From a virus (lineage: Duplodnaviria; Heunggongvirae; Uroviricota; Caudoviricetes): a stretch of 64,000 bases of DNA. Below are positions 12,944 to 61,863 of the stretch, piece after piece. Position 1 is the first letter of the stretch; each line of letters opens with the position of its first letter. The translations under genes were made by a program, and so were the position numbers. The stretch lies in IMG/VR virus record IMGVR_UViG_2799113139_000004. One strand, given 5' to 3'. The notes under the pieces are model-generated. The model saw only the letters and a list, made by a program, of their open reading frames with translations. It did no database searches and had not been told where the DNA came from.

Positions 12944-13034
12944 TACACATCACCCAGTAGTTCATAGATGTAGTAGAGTGCTCTACTAGCCGAGCTTCGG
13001 CACATCACAACAATCCCAGCGGAAGAGGGACGAA
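12944..13034. promoter_or_regulatory. Regulatory region with palindromic operator TAGTAGAGTGCTCTACTA and GGTGAT..ATCACC inverted repeat
   Basis: The palindrome at 12971-12988 matches the consensus seen at 58577-58596 and 61535-61554. An A/C-rich leader plus SD lies upstream of 13035. Confidence 0.5.
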
Positions 13035-55445: not shown

Positions 55446-56645
55446 ATGCCTGACCTATCGTTTACCATCGACCGAGATGCGTTCTCAGAGGCCGTAACCT
55501 GGGCTGCACGCGTCATTCCGAGCAAGCCGCAGCAGCCGATCCTTGCGGGCATGCTCGTCAACGGCGCAGACGATGCGCTGACCATCAGTAGCTTCGATCT
55601 CGACGTCAGCGCGGAGGTCGGCCTGTCCGACGCTACCGAGATGACGTCGGGTAGCTCTCTGGTCAGTGGCCGGCTACTGGCGACGATCGCCAAGGTATTG
55701 CCGCGCAAGCCCGTCCACTGGCACGACAAGGGCACATCGGTCGCGATCCAGTGCGGAAAGGCCGACTTCAGCTTGCCGACGATGCTCGCCGACCAGTACC
55801 CGGTCCTACCCATTCTGCCTGCCGACATGGGCCGTGTGAACGCCGAAGACTTCAGCCGGGCGGTCGCTCAGGTGATTGGAGCGGCCAGCACTGACGAGGC
55901 CAGGCCGGGAACCATGTGCGTCAACCTGGAGGTCACCAGTACCTCGACGCTGACCCTGACCACCACCAACGGACACCGAATCGCCATGCGCGAGATCAAC
56001 TGGTTGCCGCTCATCGACGATGACGCGGTGCCGGTCGGCCAGCGCCTTCTCATCCCGACGCGTGCACTCAACGAGATCGGCCGGCTTGGCGACGACGACG
56101 TATATCTGGCTTTCAGTGGGTCCGGCGAAGACGCGAATCTTCTTGGTATCCATGGCGGTCAGCGCCGCATGACTTCGCGACTCGTTGACGACAAGTTCCC
56201 CGACTGCCGGAGCGTAATGCCGAAGGAGTACAACGCGACGGCCGCGATCGTCATCCCCGACGTCATCGAGGCCGTCAGCCGCGCGCTGACCGTGACCGGT
56301 ACGTCATCCGAGAACCATCCACGCATGCGCCTGACGTTCGATGACGACGCGCTGACGGTGTACGCCAGCACGTCGATCGGTACCGTCAACGAGAGTCTTG
56401 ACGCCGAGCTGACCGGCGACGCCATCACCCTATGGCTGAACCCGGTGTACTTCATGGACAGCCTGAACTCACTCAACACCGACAAGGCGACCATCGGTCT
56501 ACGCGAGGGCATCAGGGGATTGATGCTCGCGCCCGGTGTCGTCAGCGCGGATGATCTGATCGCGAACCCGCTCGTCGGTCAGCGTCTTCAGATGATCCAA
56601 CCCATCCGGCACCAGGAGCCGGTCACAAGCCCCGCTGGCGGTTGA
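55446..56645 (+). CDS. dnaN: DNA polymerase III beta sliding clamp (DnaN-like)
   Basis: 399 aa, three-domain length. The N-terminus (LSFTIDRDAFSEAVTWAARVIPSKPQQPILAGMLV) is typical of DnaN. Confidence 0.7.
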   Translation: MPDLSFTIDRDAFSEAVTWAARVIPSKPQQPILAGMLVNGADDALTISSFDLDVSAEVGLSDATEMTSGSSLVSGRLLATIAKVLPRKPVHWHDKGTSVAIQCGKADFSLPTMLADQYPVLPILPADMGRVNAEDFSRAVAQVIGAASTDEARPGTMCVNLEVTSTSTLTLTTTNGHRIAMREINWLPLIDDDAVPVGQRLLIPTRALNEIGRLGDDDVYLAFSGSGEDANLLGIHGGQRRMTSRLVDDKFPDCRSVMPKEYNATAAIVIPDVIEAVSRALTVTGTSSENHPRMRLTFDDDALTVYASTSIGTVNESLDAELTGDAITLWLNPVYFMDSLNSLNTDKATIGLREGIRGLMLAPGVVSADDLIANPLVGQRLQMIQPIRHQEPVTSPAGG

Positions 56646-56719: not shown

Positions 56720-56766
56720 AAGCGCCCCCAACCGCATTCAGTTGCGGTTGGGGGCGCTCTTTTGCG
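56720..56766. terminator. Bidirectional rho-independent terminator
   Basis: AGCGCCCCCAACCGC-loop-GCGGTTGGGGGCGCT hairpin followed by CTTTTG, between convergent gene blocks. Confidence 0.7.
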
Positions 56767-56940: not shown

Positions 56941-57159
56941 TCAGTCGGCGCTCGGTGTGTAGTTGTCCATCCAGCCATCCTGGACACCCTCGGCGTACGC
57001 GTGGGCCGCCTCTGGCCAGCCGTCATGCCTCTTGGGTCCAGGATCAGCGGCCCAGCGATGGGGGATAGACACCGCACCAGGGAACTTGTCTCGATACAGC
57101 GCCCTCTTCTTGCCGACCTCGTACCCCTCGACGTACGGCTCACTTTGCTTGTTAGTCAT
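56941..57159 (-). CDS. Hypothetical protein
   Basis: 72 aa; start overlaps the stop of the upstream ADP-ribosylglycohydrolase gene on the minus strand. Confidence 0.4.
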   Translation of the reverse strand: MTNKQSEPYVEGYEVGKKRALYRDKFPGAVSIPHRWAADPGPKRHDGWPEAAHAYAEGVQDGWMDNYTPSAD

Positions 57160-58181
57160 CAGAACTCATACCCTTCTGCTTCCAGGATCTCTTGCTGGTA
57201 GCGCGGTTCGAGCCGCGCGAACCACTCGGCAGGCCACGGGTCATCGTGAATAGCACCGAGAATGGAGCCAGCGACAGCAGCGATCGAATCGCTGTCACCG
57301 TTGGTCACGGTCGCGCGACGCAGCGCCGCAATGGGGTCATCAGGAAACAGGTCAGCGCACAGCAGCGCGGTCGAGAGTGCGTGTTGCGCACGCCAACCTT
57401 CGCCCGCCAGTTCGCATGGGTCAAAGCTCCATGGGTCCAGTTCGGACCGTCGAATGGTGTTGAGCGCGATGTCAGCATCGACCAGAGCGTCAGCGATCGC
57501 GAGTAGCCCGCGCGTGATGAACCGACGTACACCGTCCTCGTAAGCGGGACCGTAGTAGTCGGCGTTCTCACCGATCCATTCGTCCAGTCCGGTCAGAAGC
57601 GAATCGTCGGCATCGTTGATCGCGTCGAGTGTCATCCCAAGCGCGAACGCGACTGCCTCACCCGGTGCTGGCCTCATGCGAATGAGGGCAGCAGCGACAA
57701 GAGATGCAGCGACACCCGATGCCTTGCCGTGAGTCGAAATCGCCTGCCACGCAGCGATTCCCTGCCAGCTCTTCGGATCACTGGTGAACGCAGCAGGACT
57801 GACGCGCATAACGGTTCCGCAACCGTCCGAACCTTCAACTGAAGCGTCGAGCCAGTCGATGCCAGCCTTCATCGCACCGATGGCGCGCATGCACGTGTTG
57901 CCAGGTGCGCGATTGTTGTCCGGGTCACTGAACCATTCGATCCACTCAGCGATGACGTCTTCGCGAATCTCGCTGTCGGTCTTGTTGCCTGCATCGTTGA
58001 GCGCACGCGCGAGCGCGAGTGTCATCTGAGTGTCGTCGCTGATGACCAGCTTCTCGGGAAGATTCGGCCCGAGGGGGCTACCCTTCGTCAGCTCGGCATA
58101 GCTTCTGAACTCGTTCTTGTACCCCCACGCGTCGCCATAGGCGACACCGCGGAGCACGTTCGACCATTTGCGCTTGTCCAT
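57159..58181 (-). CDS. ADP-ribosylglycohydrolase (ARH/DraG family)
   Basis: GVAYGDAWGY and ISDDTQMTLA match ADP-ribosylglycohydrolase family signatures; 340 aa. Confidence 0.75.
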   Translation of the reverse strand: MDKRKWSNVLRGVAYGDAWGYKNEFRSYAELTKGSPLGPNLPEKLVISDDTQMTLALARALNDAGNKTDSEIREDVIAEWIEWFSDPDNNRAPGNTCMRAIGAMKAGIDWLDASVEGSDGCGTVMRVSPAAFTSDPKSWQGIAAWQAISTHGKASGVAASLVAAALIRMRPAPGEAVAFALGMTLDAINDADDSLLTGLDEWIGENADYYGPAYEDGVRRFITRGLLAIADALVDADIALNTIRRSELDPWSFDPCELAGEGWRAQHALSTALLCADLFPDDPIAALRRATVTNGDSDSIAAVAGSILGAIHDDPWPAEWFARLEPRYQQEILEAEGYEF

Positions 58182-58196: not shown

Positions 58197-58331
58197 TCAG
58201 TCGGAGCAACGCTCTTCGTCGCTGTGCCAGTAGTCGCCACCGGTCACGTAGTACTCACCGTTGATGTAGATCTTTCGATGCACGTACTCACAGACGTGAC
58301 CGTGTGAGCAGCGACGCTCGTTGCCGCTCAT
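58197..58331 (-). CDS. Small Cys/His-rich protein (44 aa; not in ORF track)
   Basis: Reverse-strand ATG at 58331, TGA at 58197. Product MSGNERRCSHGHVCEYVHRKIYINGEYYVTGGDYWHSDEERCSD. Coupled by ATGA overlap to the gene upstream on the minus strand. Confidence 0.4.
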   Translation of the reverse strand: MSGNERRCSHGHVCEYVHRKIYINGEYYVTGGDYWHSDEERCSD

Positions 58332-58531: not shown

Positions 58532-58545
58532 GGCATTCCCGCTTT

Positions 58546-58648
58546 CACTAGTAGAACTGTCTACTACTCTAGCAGACTAGTAGACATGTCTACTAGGTGG
58601 TTGCGAGAATGACCTGCAGGTTCGTTGCTCCTTAGTAGACACGCCTAC
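58546..58648. promoter_or_regulatory. Operator cluster: TAGTAGAACTGTCTACTA, perfect palindrome CTAGTAGACATGTCTACTAG, and TAGTAGACACGCCTAC
   Basis: Three copies of the TAGTAGAC..GTCTACTA motif in a divergent intergenic region (58532-58690). Confidence 0.6.
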
Positions 58649-58690
58649 CGATCGCGGAACTAGACTGAGAGGCGAGATCTGGAGGACACT

Positions 58691-59065
58691 ATGACGATGG
58701 CGGCATCCCCACCGACGAACGCAACAGCCTGGTTGCGTGACAATGGCATCGAACTATCGCGCCCAATGCAGGCGCGCTTCACTGACGCATTCAACGACCT
58801 TGTAGAGCGCTACACCGAGCAGTCTGAGCGGCCAATGCGCGACGCGTCGATCATGGCCGCAGCGCGCTATCTGGCCGGTGAACTGACGCTCGAAGAGGCC
58901 GGCAGTGCGCTGGAGAAGGTCAGAGCGAAGGCCGAGGTCGCGATGGCAGTCACCCGCATCGTGACGCTGCTGTCGCTCGACGATGATTCCGTGAGTGAGT
59001 ACGGCGCGCAGCGTGCGGCCCGCGTGGATCGTATGACGATACGCAAATGGCAGGGCAAGCGATGA
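58691..59065 (+). CDS. Hypothetical protein with C-terminal Xis-like HTH
   Basis: ARVDRMTIRKWQGK resembles the HTH of the 21100 and 1378 genes; divergent from the minus-strand cassette. Confidence 0.45.
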   Translation: MTMAASPPTNATAWLRDNGIELSRPMQARFTDAFNDLVERYTEQSERPMRDASIMAAARYLAGELTLEEAGSALEKVRAKAEVAMAVTRIVTLLSLDDDSVSEYGAQRAARVDRMTIRKWQGKR

Positions 59066-59563: not shown

Positions 59564-60997
59564 TTACACGTCCGCGTGTAGACGGTAGTACGAGTCATCA
59601 TCATTGAGATCCTTGACCTTGGTGCTGTTCAGGGTCTCTCGGATGACGTCCTGGATCTGATCGTCGATCGAGAAGCCGGTCTCACCTTCGTCAGCTTCGT
59701 ACTGAGCACGAAGCTGGTTGTGTAGTGAGATCGCAGCGCCGACCAGATCGGAGGTGTCGAGCTTGTAGTCAACACCGCCACCCAGACGCCCGATGGCGTA
59801 CGTCTTAGCCCGCTCCAGAGCCTCGCGCACGAACGCCGGGTAGAAGCCGACCGCTTCACCGTTCACGTTGATCGTCATGGCCTCGTAAACCTTGTCGTAG
59901 TCAACGTCATCGGCCAGGCGGTTCGGAGCGACCACGGCGCGCACCAGGCGCTCAGTGCCGTTGCGATCCAGCGCGGCGACCTCCACGACAGCATCGATGC
60001 GACCAGGGCGAAGCATGCCCTTGTGGATTCGCTCGAAGTGGTTGGTCGTCATCAGAAGCGCCAGCTCGGAACCCTTCGACGTCACGCCGTCGAACGACTC
60101 CAGCAGCTTGGACACCTCATCCGAGTCGCCGGTAGACGCCTGGTTGTCCACGTCCTCGATGAACACCACCGCGGGCTGGTACAGCTTGGCCGTCTTCAGG
60201 ACCTCGTTGATGTTGTCACCAGGACGCGACGCGATGAACGTCCAGCCGCTCGCAACCGCTTCGAGCGCGGTCAACTGACCAGCGGAGGTCTTTCCGGTGC
60301 CGTACGGGCCTTCCAGCAGCAGCGCGCGCTTGATACGCACACCTTCGCTCTTGAGCACTTCACGGTGACGGATGACCGACCACAGGGTGCCCTCCAAGGT
60401 GCTCATCACCTCGTCGGAGAAGACGATCTCCTCGGGTTTGACGCTCGACAGGTTCAGGAACTCTGGTTCCTCGGTGCCGACGATCGCCTGACCGCGATAG
60501 ATCGAGTTCGTCTTCAGCTCTTGACCGATGGCGTCCAGGAACTCAACCGCCTTGGGAGAGTTCTTCTTTGCTGTGATCACGCTGATGTACGCGATCATCC
60601 CGTGCTCGCGATCCCGTGTGCCAGACACCATGATGACGCCACCATCGCCGAGCGACGGGACATACACCCGACCCCAGGGGACCTCCAGTGTTTCGGTGGC
60701 AGAGATCTGCACCGTGCGCGTCTCCGGTGGCTCCGGCGGTGAGAAGAAGCCGCCCGGAGTTGGCATGCCGATGGTGATACCGAACATGCGCTTCATAACG
60801 CGCTGCGCTGCCACCGCCCCATCGAACGGACGGAACTGGTAGGTCCGCTTCTTCTCCATCATCGTCTCGGCCTCATCCTGCATTCGCTGCAAGATGTCCT
60901 TGGCGCGACCGTAAGTGATGTTGCGCGGCAACACAATATCGGTCTTATCGTGGAAAGTGACCTCATCACCGGTGATGATCTCGTCGTCCTTCATGGT
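59564..60997 (-). CDS. AAA+ ATPase (classic AAA clade) with N-terminal domain of unknown function
   Basis: Walker A (GPYGTGKT), Walker B (VVFIEDVD), SRH/arginine finger (TTNHFERIHKGMLRPGRID). Start at the internal Met with SD (gagaaagagagaacc ATG). The ORF track extends to 61153. Confidence 0.7.
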   Translation of the reverse strand, partial: TMKDDEIITGDEVTFHDKTDIVLPRNITYGRAKDILQRMQDEAETMMEKKRTYQFRPFDGAVAAQRVMKRMFGITIGMPTPGGFFSPPEPPETRTVQISATETLEVPWGRVYVPSLGDGGVIMVSGTRDREHGMIAYISVITAKKNSPKAVEFLDAIGQELKTNSIYRGQAIVGTEEPEFLNLSSVKPEEIVFSDEVMSTLEGTLWSVIRHREVLKSEGVRIKRALLLEGPYGTGKTSAGQLTALEAVASGWTFIASRPGDNINEVLKTAKLYQPAVVFIEDVDNQASTGDSDEVSKLLESFDGVTSKGSELALLMTTNHFERIHKGMLRPGRIDAVVEVAALDRNGTERLVRAVVAPNRLADDVDYDKVYEAMTINVNGEAVGFYPAFVREALERAKTYAIGRLGGGVDYKLDTSDLVGAAISLHNQLRAQYEADEGETGFSIDDQIQDVIRETLNSTKVKDLNDDDSYYRLHADV

Positions 60998-61237
60998 TCT
61001 CTCTTTCTCTATTCCGCTGGATATCTGTTGTTGGTCGGCACCCCCACCCGCCATGGTTTCCAGGTGGGGGTGCCGTGCCGAACTGACCTGGGAGATCGTC
61101 AGATCAGTCGGCGAATGTTGATGTCGTGAGCCAGACAGGAGTCCCGCGCCCAATGATCACTTTGCGCGCTAGCTCGCGTCCTTACCGTGATCGCGACCAA
61201 CGTAATCACATTCGCGACAAGCGAATTCGAGGGGACC

Positions 61238-61269
61238 AGGTGGTCGAGATTGCTCCCGACCACCTGGCG
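61238..61269. promoter_or_regulatory. Perfect inverted repeat CCAGGTGGTCG-N10-CGACCACCTGG
   Basis: 11-bp arms; lies just past the stop of the minus-strand 61274-61465 gene. Confidence 0.35.
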
Positions 61270-61273
61270 TCTG

Positions 61274-61465
61274 CTAGTTGGTCAGCAGATCTTCGCCTTG
61301 CTCGATTTGCTCAAGCTCTGTCTCCAGTCGTTGCACCTCGGCAACGAGAGCACGAAGCTCGCGTTTGCGATTTGCAATCTTCTGGGTGACGACTCTGCGC
61401 CGCTGGCGCAGAGTAGCAAGAGCCTCGTCGCGGCTCATCCCCTCGGGAAGTTGAATCATGTTCAC
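61274..61465 (-). CDS. Small coiled-coil protein
   Basis: 63 aa; start GGAGG SD-like (aggaggtgaac ATG on the minus strand). Confidence 0.45.
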   Translation of the reverse strand: MNMIQLPEGMSRDEALATLRQRRRVVTQKIANRKRELRALVAEVQRLETELEQIEQGEDLLTN

Positions 61466-61534
61466 CTCCTTCTGTTTCCGCTAGTCGTTGTTGTGATTGA
61501 CACCTTGTCGGTGTCGTCTTCGACAGTAGCACAG

Positions 61535-61652
61535 CTAGTAGACAAGTCTACTGGTTTGACGAGTATTTCTATGAACTAGTGATAAATGGTACGTCTACTG
61601 CTGGACCTATGCGGCAGGTTTCAGCAGATAGTAGACTGATCTACCATCTACC
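61535..61652. promoter_or_regulatory. Operator cluster: CTAGTAGACAAGTCTACTGG, GTCTACTG half-site, and TAGTAGACTGATCTAC
   Basis: Same motif family as at 58546-58648 and 12971-12988; divergent intergenic region 61466-61671. Confidence 0.55.
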
Positions 61653-61671
61653 CCGAGAGAAGGAGGACGAC

Positions 61672-61863
61672 ATGTCCGAGATCATTCGTTTGCGTGACGA
61701 TGACGGTGACCAGCTCGTCGTTGAGCACGAAGGCAAGGCCCAGCACTTCACGTTTCGAGTGGTGGACCCGGACGGTAATCACATGGCCGCCTACGTGCCC
61801 TATGCCGACGCGGCCGCGCTGGTGACGACGATCAGCGAGACCTTGACGGAGGCGGTGGGGTGA
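61672..61863 (+). CDS. Hypothetical protein
   Basis: ATG with a strong SD (gagaaggaggacgac ATG); 63 aa. Confidence 0.5.
   Translation: MSEIIRLRDDDGDQLVVEHEGKAQHFTFRVVDPDGNHMAAYVPYADAAALVTTISETLTEAVG

Follow-up and report, generated by a model that had tools for sequence, protein, structure and literature searches.

Why would a temperate phage that carries a candidate ADP-ribosylating toxin in its virion encode an enzyme of the type that removes ADP-ribose, and do so far from the toxin gene and under separate control? The question is raised by gene 88 of a 64,000-nucleotide stretch (hereafter the window) of the Caudoviricetes record IMGVR_UViG_2799113139_000004, which encodes a predicted hydrolase of the ARH family, and by gene 54, whose product (gp54) carries an ADP-ribosyltransferase (ART) domain. 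The 2.7 kb surrounding the ARH gene are 100% identical to BK061312.1, Mycobacterium phage prophiFSQJ01-1, a cluster MabR prophage of Mycobacteroides abscessus that is temperate by gene content (integrase and repressor genes are present); positions in that record minus 1847 give the window positions used here. In the deposited annotation gene 88 already bears the name 'ADP-ribosyl glycohydrolase' and the 1170-aa gene 54 that of 'minor capsid and ADP-ribosyltransferase domain fusion protein', so that both genes were annotated before, and the mechanism is of a known type, immunity by an ARH to an ART fused to a MuF domain. What differs here is that the ARH is displaced from the toxin into a separate cassette, whose ARH ortholog in the MabR prophage McProf is expressed in lysogeny. 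We favour, at somewhat better than even confidence, the reading that the ARH would serve as an enzymatic eraser of, and immunity to, arginine ADP-ribosylation by the phage's own capsid-packaged gp54.

The enzyme itself is readily classified. Gene 88 matches Pfam PF03747 (ADP_ribosyl_GH) over residues 10-312 (profile positions 3-279 of 287; E=4.2e-45) with a score of 155.1 bits against a cut-off of 26.2, and PHROGs family phrog_22100 with E=3e-68, in agreement with an earlier sequence-only reading of the window that had assigned a 340-aa open reading frame (ORF) to the ARH/DraG family from the motifs GVAYGDAWGY and ISDDTQMTLA, both of which are present. In alignments with 31 and with 50 homologs, residues E24, D49, D50, T150, H151, D296 and D298 never vary, and T51 and S299 do so rarely if at all; the conserved residues correspond to the metal ligands and the 'TH' motif of DraG/ARH enzymes and align with the TDDT and DxDT motifs of DraG. 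The AlphaFold2 model (pLDDT 95.1, pTM 0.94) has the all-alpha ARH fold, with Foldseek matches to ARH3, ARH1, MJ1187 and DraG at probability 1.00 and TM 0.58-0.71, and it also matches the Listeria 'ART-ARH effector-immunity' structure 8za7. The top sequence matches in the PDB are the arginine-specific DraG (profile E=2.5e-27) and Tri1. With every catalytic residue intact, gene 88 is predicted to encode a catalytically competent ADP-ribosyl hydrolase. An ARH1-like or ARH3-like subfamily label was considered and set aside, as neither sequence nor fold separates the two; arginine specificity is suggested by a single circumstance, the E-x-E signature of the putative partner ART.

That partner is encoded directly after the portal gene. 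The sequence-only reading had pointed to an ART domain in a distant MuF protein, and this is borne out: gene 54 matches VG15 (MuF-like) with E=1.5e-39 and PF03496 (ADPrib_exo_Tox) with E=8.7e-16, the C-terminal ART domain lying at about 32080-32652 with the R-S-ExE motifs LSRGT, YLSTSI and GEREV. Among R-S-E ARTs, R-S-ExE is the arginine-specific signature. The closest solved structures are C3-type exoenzymes, whose QxE is here replaced by ExE (GEREV). In its make-up gp54 resembles a MuF toxin, a MuF-fused C-terminal ART of the arginine type encoded in the head/packaging module. The ART is its most divergent part, with 58-60% identity against about 80% for a kinase-like module upstream of it, as would fit a polymorphic toxin paired with an antidote directed at the product.

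If the two proteins act together, their genes should tend to be found together. A tblastn search of 50,697 cultured phage records recovered ARH homologs in 27, all of them actinobacteriophages, and the gp54 ART domain in 66. Such searches alone undercount ARTs: the ART of the Forza group, which is the C-terminal PF03496 domain (E=7e-18) of a 1017-aa protein of the head module, was missed and recovered only through annotation and Pfam, the group having first appeared ARH-only. Both genes occur in the five MabR prophages compared throughout (this phage, McProf, FSIL, FSAT and FVLQ), in the Gordonia Aleemily/Cafasso/ObLaDi/Morgana group, in Sixama, in GMA2 and in the Forza group. A PF03496 ART is present in 18 of the 27 ARH records, whereas in the whole set of 50,697 records only about 92 have one (Fisher p=4e-44, uncorrected for phylogeny). 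Counted by lineage, five of seven ARH lineages have an ART (p about 6e-6 at 5% background) or, conservatively, three of five (p about 1e-3). The co-occurrence of MuF-ART and ARH among relatives, which the sequence-only reading had proposed as a check, holds in all five MabR prophages, none of which lacks either gene. Outside the cluster ARH-only phages (the Trina and Phrappuccino groups) and many ART-only phages also exist; the pairing is frequent, not obligatory.

The association extends well beyond cultured phages. With an alignment of ARH sequences as query, 80 loci were recovered from chromosomes, most of them of Streptomyces and Kitasatospora, and 78 from IMG/VR, all taken with 10 kb on either side; the single-sequence ARH query had found no relatives among genome contigs and only MabR-like ones among viral contigs. 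By an iterated ART profile that is weak for very divergent ART domains, an ART lies within 10 kb of the ARH at 32 of the 78 viral loci against 1 of the 80 chromosomal loci (Fisher p=5.9e-11). Essentially all ARTs near the viral ARH loci carry E-x-E, and Pfam PF03496 was confirmed in each of eight representative ART proteins, two of which also have an N-terminal Zeta-toxin kinase domain. The usual layout is a protein of 1,100-1,700 aa with a C-terminal ART, its gene lying on the strand of the ARH gene and ending 30 nt to 1.3 kb before it, and the G+C content of these contigs, 0.41-0.69, implies several unrelated lineages. By PHROGs, the modules are located in head-morphogenesis regions, near portal, MuF-like and major head genes. 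The order in locus L175 is portal, MuF-like minor head protein, Zeta+ART protein and ARH, and in loci L122 and L128 the ART and ARH directly precede portal/protease-like and major head genes. These layouts suggest that ARH erasers are recurrent companions of E-x-E ART effectors in the head modules of very different lineages.

Two variations on this layout are recorded here in their own right. In a group of uncultivated phages of about 57 kb and high G+C content (L122:9054-9932, L128:9048-9928 and relatives), two conserved small genes stand between ART and ARH, one encoding a protein of about 105 aa that begins with MKLGH..DEIK, the other a helix-turn-helix (HTH)-like protein of about 150 aa with the motif VLGCSRQYV; they may be extra immunity or regulatory components. 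A jumbo-phage contig (L136:6023-11035; 345 kb, G+C 0.41) carries three tandem paralogous ExE ART genes (374-415 aa) followed, after a gap of 350 nt, by an ARH gene.

The sequence of events that we favour for the MabR phage can be put as follows. We infer that gp54 would be made late, packaged beside the portal by means of its MuF domain and ejected with the DNA, whereupon its ExE ART would ADP-ribosylate arginines of host proteins, these products being the presumed substrate of the ARH. The ARH, transcribed from its own operator-controlled leftward promoter, which would be active in the lysogen, would hydrolyse the Arg-ADP-ribose bond at its binuclear metal centre. A new or existing lysogen would in this way be reset and protected, both from ART brought in by sibling virions and from ART made in the cell itself through leakage or on induction. 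Because such an enzyme acts on the product, it would have no need to co-vary with the fast-diverging toxin domain. The findings behind this proposal are the intact enzyme, the ExE ART fused to MuF, the strong co-occurrence and the conserved operators, to which the literature adds the lysogenic expression of McProf genes and, by analogy, the Bxa/BAH pair as a case of ARH immunity to a MuF-ART.

The operators are a property of the whole MabR group. The three palindromes noted earlier upstream of the cassette are indeed there (TAGTAGACnnGTCTACTA at 58549, 58578 and 58633), the perfect copy O2 overlapping the -35 element of a rightward promoter-like site at 58581-58610. Across the window, TAGTAGACnnGTCTACTA has seven matches at no more than three mismatches against 0.03 expected. 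In each of the five MabR prophages three palindromes stand directly upstream of the first cassette gene (consensus T[A/G]GTAGA..TCTAC[C/T]A), and a second divergent control region, which in the window precedes an AAA-ATPase operon, has two further copies at a spacing of about 92 nt. An operator-like copy at 12971 (TAGTAGAGTGCTCTACTA) suggests that the regulon may reach the early region. The simplest candidate for a protein that would bind these palindromes is gp91, the HTH protein encoded divergently from the cassette, which has orthologs of 66-70% identity near the ARH in the other MabR prophages. The immunity repressor was considered for this role and ruled out, because no copy of the palindrome is found in the repressor/cro (gene 3-4) intergenic region.

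For one member of the group there is information on when these operons are expressed. McProf gp85, gp86 (the ARH ortholog), gp91 and gp92 (the AAA-ATPase operon) are reported to be among 16 genes expressed in lysogeny (PMC9434293; the primary RNA-seq paper is PMC8191103), so that in McProf at least the lysogen expresses both of the leftward operons that carry these operators. The separate regulation of the cassette, proposed earlier from the window alone, is supported by this reported expression of gp85 and gp86 and by operators that are positionally kept in all five prophages. The AAA-ATPase (gene 95) has a weak PADLOC match to the defence protein IetA (E=5e-7) and also matches nSTAND NTPase models, which makes it a candidate prophage defence gene.

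Shared operators and shared expression in the lysogen bring in another explanation, compatible with the one that we favour. The ARH could belong, with the AAA-ATPase operon, to a lysogeny-expressed defence island, in which it erases the takeover marks set by the injected ARTs of heterotypic phages (Cluster A 'VIP2-like' proteins, for example) and so blocks or attenuates infection. ARTs are common among mycobacteriophages, the enzymatic immunity protein Aph1 cross-protects against non-cognate toxins, and host systems centred on ADP-ribosylglycohydrolases (ARGs) that counter viral ARTs were predicted by Iyer et al. (PMC9503650). Defence alone, however, does not predict the strong linkage of the ARH to the phage's own ART, and it leaves unexplained the adjacency of ART and ARH in head modules, including those of large genomes whose examined parts show no trace of a lysogeny module; moreover, neither the ARH nor the small cassette proteins matched any defence system in a scan of PADLOC-DB 2.0. 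We regard this explanation as unlikely, and give the same low weight to its broader form, in which the lysogen's ARH and the operator-sharing AAA-ATPase operon would provide eraser immunity against the phage's own toxin and against any phage dependent on an injected arginine ART. If it were true, it would amount to a defence principle that reverses viral takeover modifications, and would bear on the choice of therapeutic phages against M. abscessus. To our knowledge such reversal, which Iyer et al. predicted for host ARG systems, has never been demonstrated as a defence.

Several observations weigh against our preferred reading of the ARH as immunity to gp54. The ARH gene lies 24.5 kb from gene 54 and is encoded on the other strand, with separate operators and a separate terminator; toxin and hydrolase are adjacent in the 32 IMG/VR relatives, and we know of no characterised toxin-immunity pair with such a separation and separate control. 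Lysogenic expression is known for McProf alone, through a statement in one paper, and it means that the ARH is produced when the ART is not. In both profile and fold searches ARH3, which acts on serine, poly(ADP-ribose) and O-acetyl-ADP-ribose, was matched about as well as ARH1, DraG and Tri1. The co-occurrence counts are phylogenetically non-independent, and many actinophages have an ART and no ARH (the Cluster A 'VIP2-like', Onyinye and Chidiebere groups and the Microbacterium MuF-ARTs), so that an ARH is not required. Conversely, no ART was detectable in the Trina group, in Phrappuccino/Settecandela or in loci L012 and L014 (for the last two within ±10 kb only).

The Trina group consists of Rhodococcus phages. 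It has no annotated or detectable ART by a local two-sequence profile that could not link the FSQJ and Forza ARTs, and the iterated profile, run on loci only, found none within ±10 kb in the IMG/VR loci of Trina and Weasels2 (L105, L135). In Trina (L008:8184-15743) the neighbours of the ARH homolog, in a leftward block of early genes, encode nicotinamide phosphoribosyltransferase (Nampt), ribose-phosphate pyrophosphokinase (Prs) and ThyX, and the genome also encodes a macro-type 'ADP-ribose-1-P processing' phosphatase. This is a different context for the family, one of NAD+ and ADP-ribose metabolism, and an ARH without a phage ART indicates that uses independent of such an ART exist. This lends some support to counter-defence, in which the ARH would reverse the marks of host immune ARTs (on DNA as by DarT-like, on mRNA as by CmdT-like enzymes, or on protein) or clear ADP-ribose products, and so protect replication. 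For Trina-like phages this is plausible; for the phage of the window it is less so, and there we hold it improbable. The proteins known to reverse ADP-ribosylation of DNA and RNA belong to the macrodomains and NADARs and do not have the ARH fold (PMC9503650), the MabR ARH lies in the lysogeny-expressed right arm and not among early lytic genes, and the association with phage ExE ARTs is strong. The anti-defence role that the sequence-only reading had offered as its alternative loses ground: PADLOC gave no match, and expression in the lysogen and the link with a phage ART are harder to square with it.

The chromosomal relatives point to yet another possibility. The phage ARH branches off from a large ARH clade of actinobacteria, in which the members of about 40% identity are chromosomal, beside LigA, GatCAB and MnmA, and a gene of housekeeping surroundings might have been recruited for lysogenic conversion, editing endogenous mycobacterial ADP-ribosylation (or O-acetyl-ADP-ribose or free ADP-ribose conjugates) independently of any phage ART and altering host physiology such as stress or antibiotic responses. 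The equal resemblance to ARH3 would suit this role, and McProf, with its ARH ortholog among the lysogeny-expressed genes, alters whiB7 expression and drug resistance (PMC9434293, PMC8191103). The authors of that work nevertheless regard the polymorphic toxin cassette as the more likely cause of the whiB7 effects (PMC8191103), and the co-occurrence with ARTs is left unexplained; we give lysogenic conversion a probability as small as that of counter-defence, and the remaining probability goes to other roles.

Returning to the immunity to gp54 that we prefer, comparison of the cassette among the MabR prophages shows which of its genes is conserved. The leftward cassette consists of genes 90, 89, 88, 87 and 86 (58531 to 56771), which are translationally coupled, each stop codon overlapping the next start or lying close to it (Table 1); it had been described as a four-gene minus-strand operon (58531 to 56941), gene 86 having been missed. 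The ARH is present in all five prophages at 65-74% identity and is the sole cassette gene kept in all. Gene 90 has no family match in Pfam, PHROGs or PADLOC and no homolog among the other MabR cassettes. Gene 89, which encodes a 44-aa Cys/His protein, matched by BLAST none of the ORFs upstream of the ARH in McProf, FSIL, FSAT and FVLQ; its position is taken by a different 66-aa Cys/His protein in McProf, FSIL and FSAT, and by a 45-aa protein without Cys in FVLQ. Gene 87, without a Pfam, PHROG or PADLOC match, shares 73% identity with the versions in FVLQ and FSIL; other genes take its place in McProf and FSAT. On either side of the ARH the ORFs form a mosaic that differs among the prophages, and the 44-aa protein, once put forward as a possible partner of the ARH, is ruled out as a conserved one, being found in this phage alone among the five. 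Of the earlier interpretation, then, the antidote or eraser role is favoured by the comparison, and the 44-aa partner and the four-gene operon are not retained.

Table 1. Features of the window that bear on the ARH cassette, its control and the candidate toxin.
Feature	Position	Strand	Basis or remark
ARH, gene 88, predicted ADP-ribosyl eraser, 340 aa	57159..58181	-	PF03747, phrog_22100, AlphaFold2/Foldseek, invariant catalytic residues
Gene 54, predicted polyvalent virion protein: MuF/VG15 N-terminal, Lys/Ala-rich repeats, kinase-like module, C-terminal ART	29146..32658	+	Pfam
Conserved ORF immediately after toxin gene	32645..33046	+	75% full-length identity to McProf gp55 (122 aa)
Gene 90, first gene of cassette, 67 aa	58328..58531	-	ORF, annotation; restricted to this phage
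Gene 89, 44-aa Cys/His ORF	58197..58331	-	ORF; restricted to this phage
Gene 87, 72 aa, overlaps ARH stop (ATGA)	56941..57159	-	ORF; MabR comparison
Gene 86, fifth and last cassette gene, 56 aa	56771..56941	-	Start overlaps gene 87 stop
G+C-rich stem-loop, 16 pairs	56721..56758	.	Between convergent clamp operon and end of ARH cassette
Divergent control region, 159 bp	58532..58690	.	O1 58549-58566, O2 58578-58595 (perfect), O3 58633-58650
Gene 91, HTH DNA-binding protein, divergent from cassette	58691..59065	+	phrog_2311, E=4e-19
Operon under same operators: unannotated 63-aa ORF (61274-61465) and AAA-ATPase gene 95 (59564-60994)	59564..61465	-	Pfam AAA, E=1e-14
Second divergent control region, operators 61536-61553 and 61629-61646	61466..61671	.	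Same palindrome; precedes AAA-ATPase operon
Operator-like palindrome TAGTAGAGTGCTCTACTA, 2 mismatches	12971..12988	.	91-bp gap between primase/polymerase gene 24 and gene 25

At its downstream end the cassette faces a convergent operon, from which it is separated by a stem-loop that likely serves as a bidirectional terminator. The convergent gene (55446-56645, + strand) encodes a DNA polymerase III beta sliding clamp with all three Pfam clamp domains; it is kept in all MabR prophages and is unusual for a temperate siphovirus of 68 kb. At the other end, beyond gene 91, the 63-aa ORF that heads the AAA-ATPase operon is 82-89% identical to McProf gp92 and its orthologs, with a predicted coiled-coil and a strong ribosome-binding site. 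The deposited record is probably misannotated at 61250-61863, where this leftward ORF is missing and is overlapped by gene 96 ('membrane protein', + strand, 61250-61579); the start of gene 97 (61579-61863, + strand) is more likely the ATG at 61672, after GAAGGAGG.

Two features of the toxin locus deserve separate mention. The conserved ORF immediately after gene 54 forms one continuous frame, for which the record instead gives genes 55 and 56, two short and unrelated ORFs whose frames differ; it has no family match. In that frame there is no ATG, GTG or TTG upstream of 32876, only ATC at 32645 and CTG at 32651, which overlap the gp54 stop, so that a non-canonical start, translational coupling or decay are all possible. 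By analogy with Bsi of the Bxa system and with the small ORFs found downstream of MuF toxins (PMC5576092), it holds the position typical of a small, non-enzymatic immunity protein (Bsi-like). The second feature is the kinase-like module of gp54 (about 30448-31281, some 270 aa), which has a PI3/4-kinase/HipA-like signature (GNHDTHAGQF ... IGIDKGQAF) and is covered by no Pfam model, the matches to PI3_PI4_kinase and HipA_C being faint. Its identity is 43% to the N-terminal part of Phrappuccino gp195 (2030 aa), 39% to ART proteins of the Onyinye group and 30-32% to proteins of 781-795 aa from other mycobacterial elements, and an index of 5.8 billion proteins yielded only 16 clusters of it, none with a Pfam domain for the module. 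A comparable combination, of a Zeta-toxin kinase with an ART, occurs in other phages.

The same module recurs near the closest relatives of the ARH outside MabR, which are those of Phrappuccino (46.6% identity) and of two mycobacterial mobile elements (52-54%). In Phrappuccino (L011:13965-24900), L012:5007-12451 and L014:1785-10958, the ARH lies 4-6 kb from a protein with the kinase-like module, and the DNA visible there contains no detectable ART. The idea that Phrappuccino gp195 has a cryptic ART at its C-terminus found no support in Pfam at E<=10, in phmmer searches of the PDB or with the iterated ART profile. The kinase-like module was considered as a specific partner of the ARH and rejected as a general rule, since the Onyinye group has module and ART without ARH; standalone homologs also occur in phage structural modules without ARH, and we therefore treat its proximity to the ARH as shared cargo of related elements.

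The interest of these results lies in the way in which a temperate phage may spare the cell that it lysogenises. Phage-delivered ARTs are widespread, and how temperate phages protect the lysogenised cell from them is known from one experimental case, Bxa/BAH. The MabR arrangement suggests that an eraser can be relocated to a lysogeny-expressed arm of the prophage. MabR prophages inhabit M. abscessus, a drug-resistant pathogen, and McProf alters antibiotic resistance; an editor of protein ADP-ribosylation expressed in the lysogen is thus a candidate that might influence the physiology of the host and how well therapeutic phages infect it.

Earlier surveys provide the genomic background for such pairs. 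Jamet et al. defined the MuF toxins, proposed their co-delivery with DNA and found small putative immunity ORFs downstream of 89% of them (PMC5576092). Iyer, Burroughs, Anantharaman and Aravind (Viruses 2022) reported ARGs as sporadic in actinobacterial caudoviruses, interpreted MuF-fused Alt/VIP2 ARTs as head-packaged effectors and noted an ART-ARG pair in Aeromonas phages (PMC9503650); the split layout of MabR, its regulation and the frequent pairing of giant ARTs with ARHs in head modules are not described there.

Among characterised systems, DraT/DraG has in common with the present case the hydrolase fold and metal site of DraG and its reversal of Arg-ADP-ribosylation, but is a cellular nitrogenase switch, and the window has neither a DraT-type partner nor a nitrogen-fixation context. 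The Alt protein of phage T4 is an ART that is packaged in the head, ejected with the DNA and modifies host proteins on arginine (cited in PMC9503650 and PMC5576092); unlike the MabR phage, T4 is strictly lytic and is not known to encode an ARH eraser, and Alt is not a MuF fusion. In Tre1/Tri1 of Serratia (Ting et al. 2018; PDB 6dre/6drh) an ExE arginine ART is likewise neutralised by a DraG-like ARH, but the two form an adjacent interbacterial effector pair of the type VI secretion system, and Tri1 has an N-terminal extension that blocks the toxin; residues 1-72 of Tri1 have no counterpart in gene 88, residue 5 of which aligns to Tri1 residue 73, the core starting from about residues 5-12. Apk2/Aph1/Tis1 (Ahmad et al., PNAS 2023; PMC10083569) offers a MuF-fused toxin of a temperate phage, Apk2, with an enzymatic immunity protein, Aph1, that degrades the product and is able to cross-protect; it differs in its chemistry, the synthesis and hydrolysis of (p)ppApp, and in the adjacency of its genes, and the same study noted ADP-ribosylhydrolase genes flanking Bxa.

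The nearest parallel is that of Bxa, a MuF-ART of a Bacteroides stercoris prophage. Alexei et al. (JBC 2024; PMC11699363) showed that this toxin is lethal to bacteria and promiscuous in its ADP-ribosylation of arginines. BAH, an ARH1-like hydrolase encoded next to it, undoes the modification and restores growth, and a small protein, Bsi, acts on Bxa itself as an inhibitor. The two cases differ in that BAH adjoins bxa, whereas the ARH of the window is distant, leftward, operator-controlled and, in its McProf ortholog, expressed in lysogeny, and in that the MabR toxin candidate is a 1170-aa polyvalent protein with a kinase-like module in a phage of an actinobacterial host. They have in common a prophage MuF-fused C-terminal ART of the arginine type in the head-morphogenesis region and a phage-encoded hydrolase of the ARH fold; a small ORF next to the toxin gene may provide a second, non-enzymatic inhibitor, for which 32645-33046 is the candidate here.

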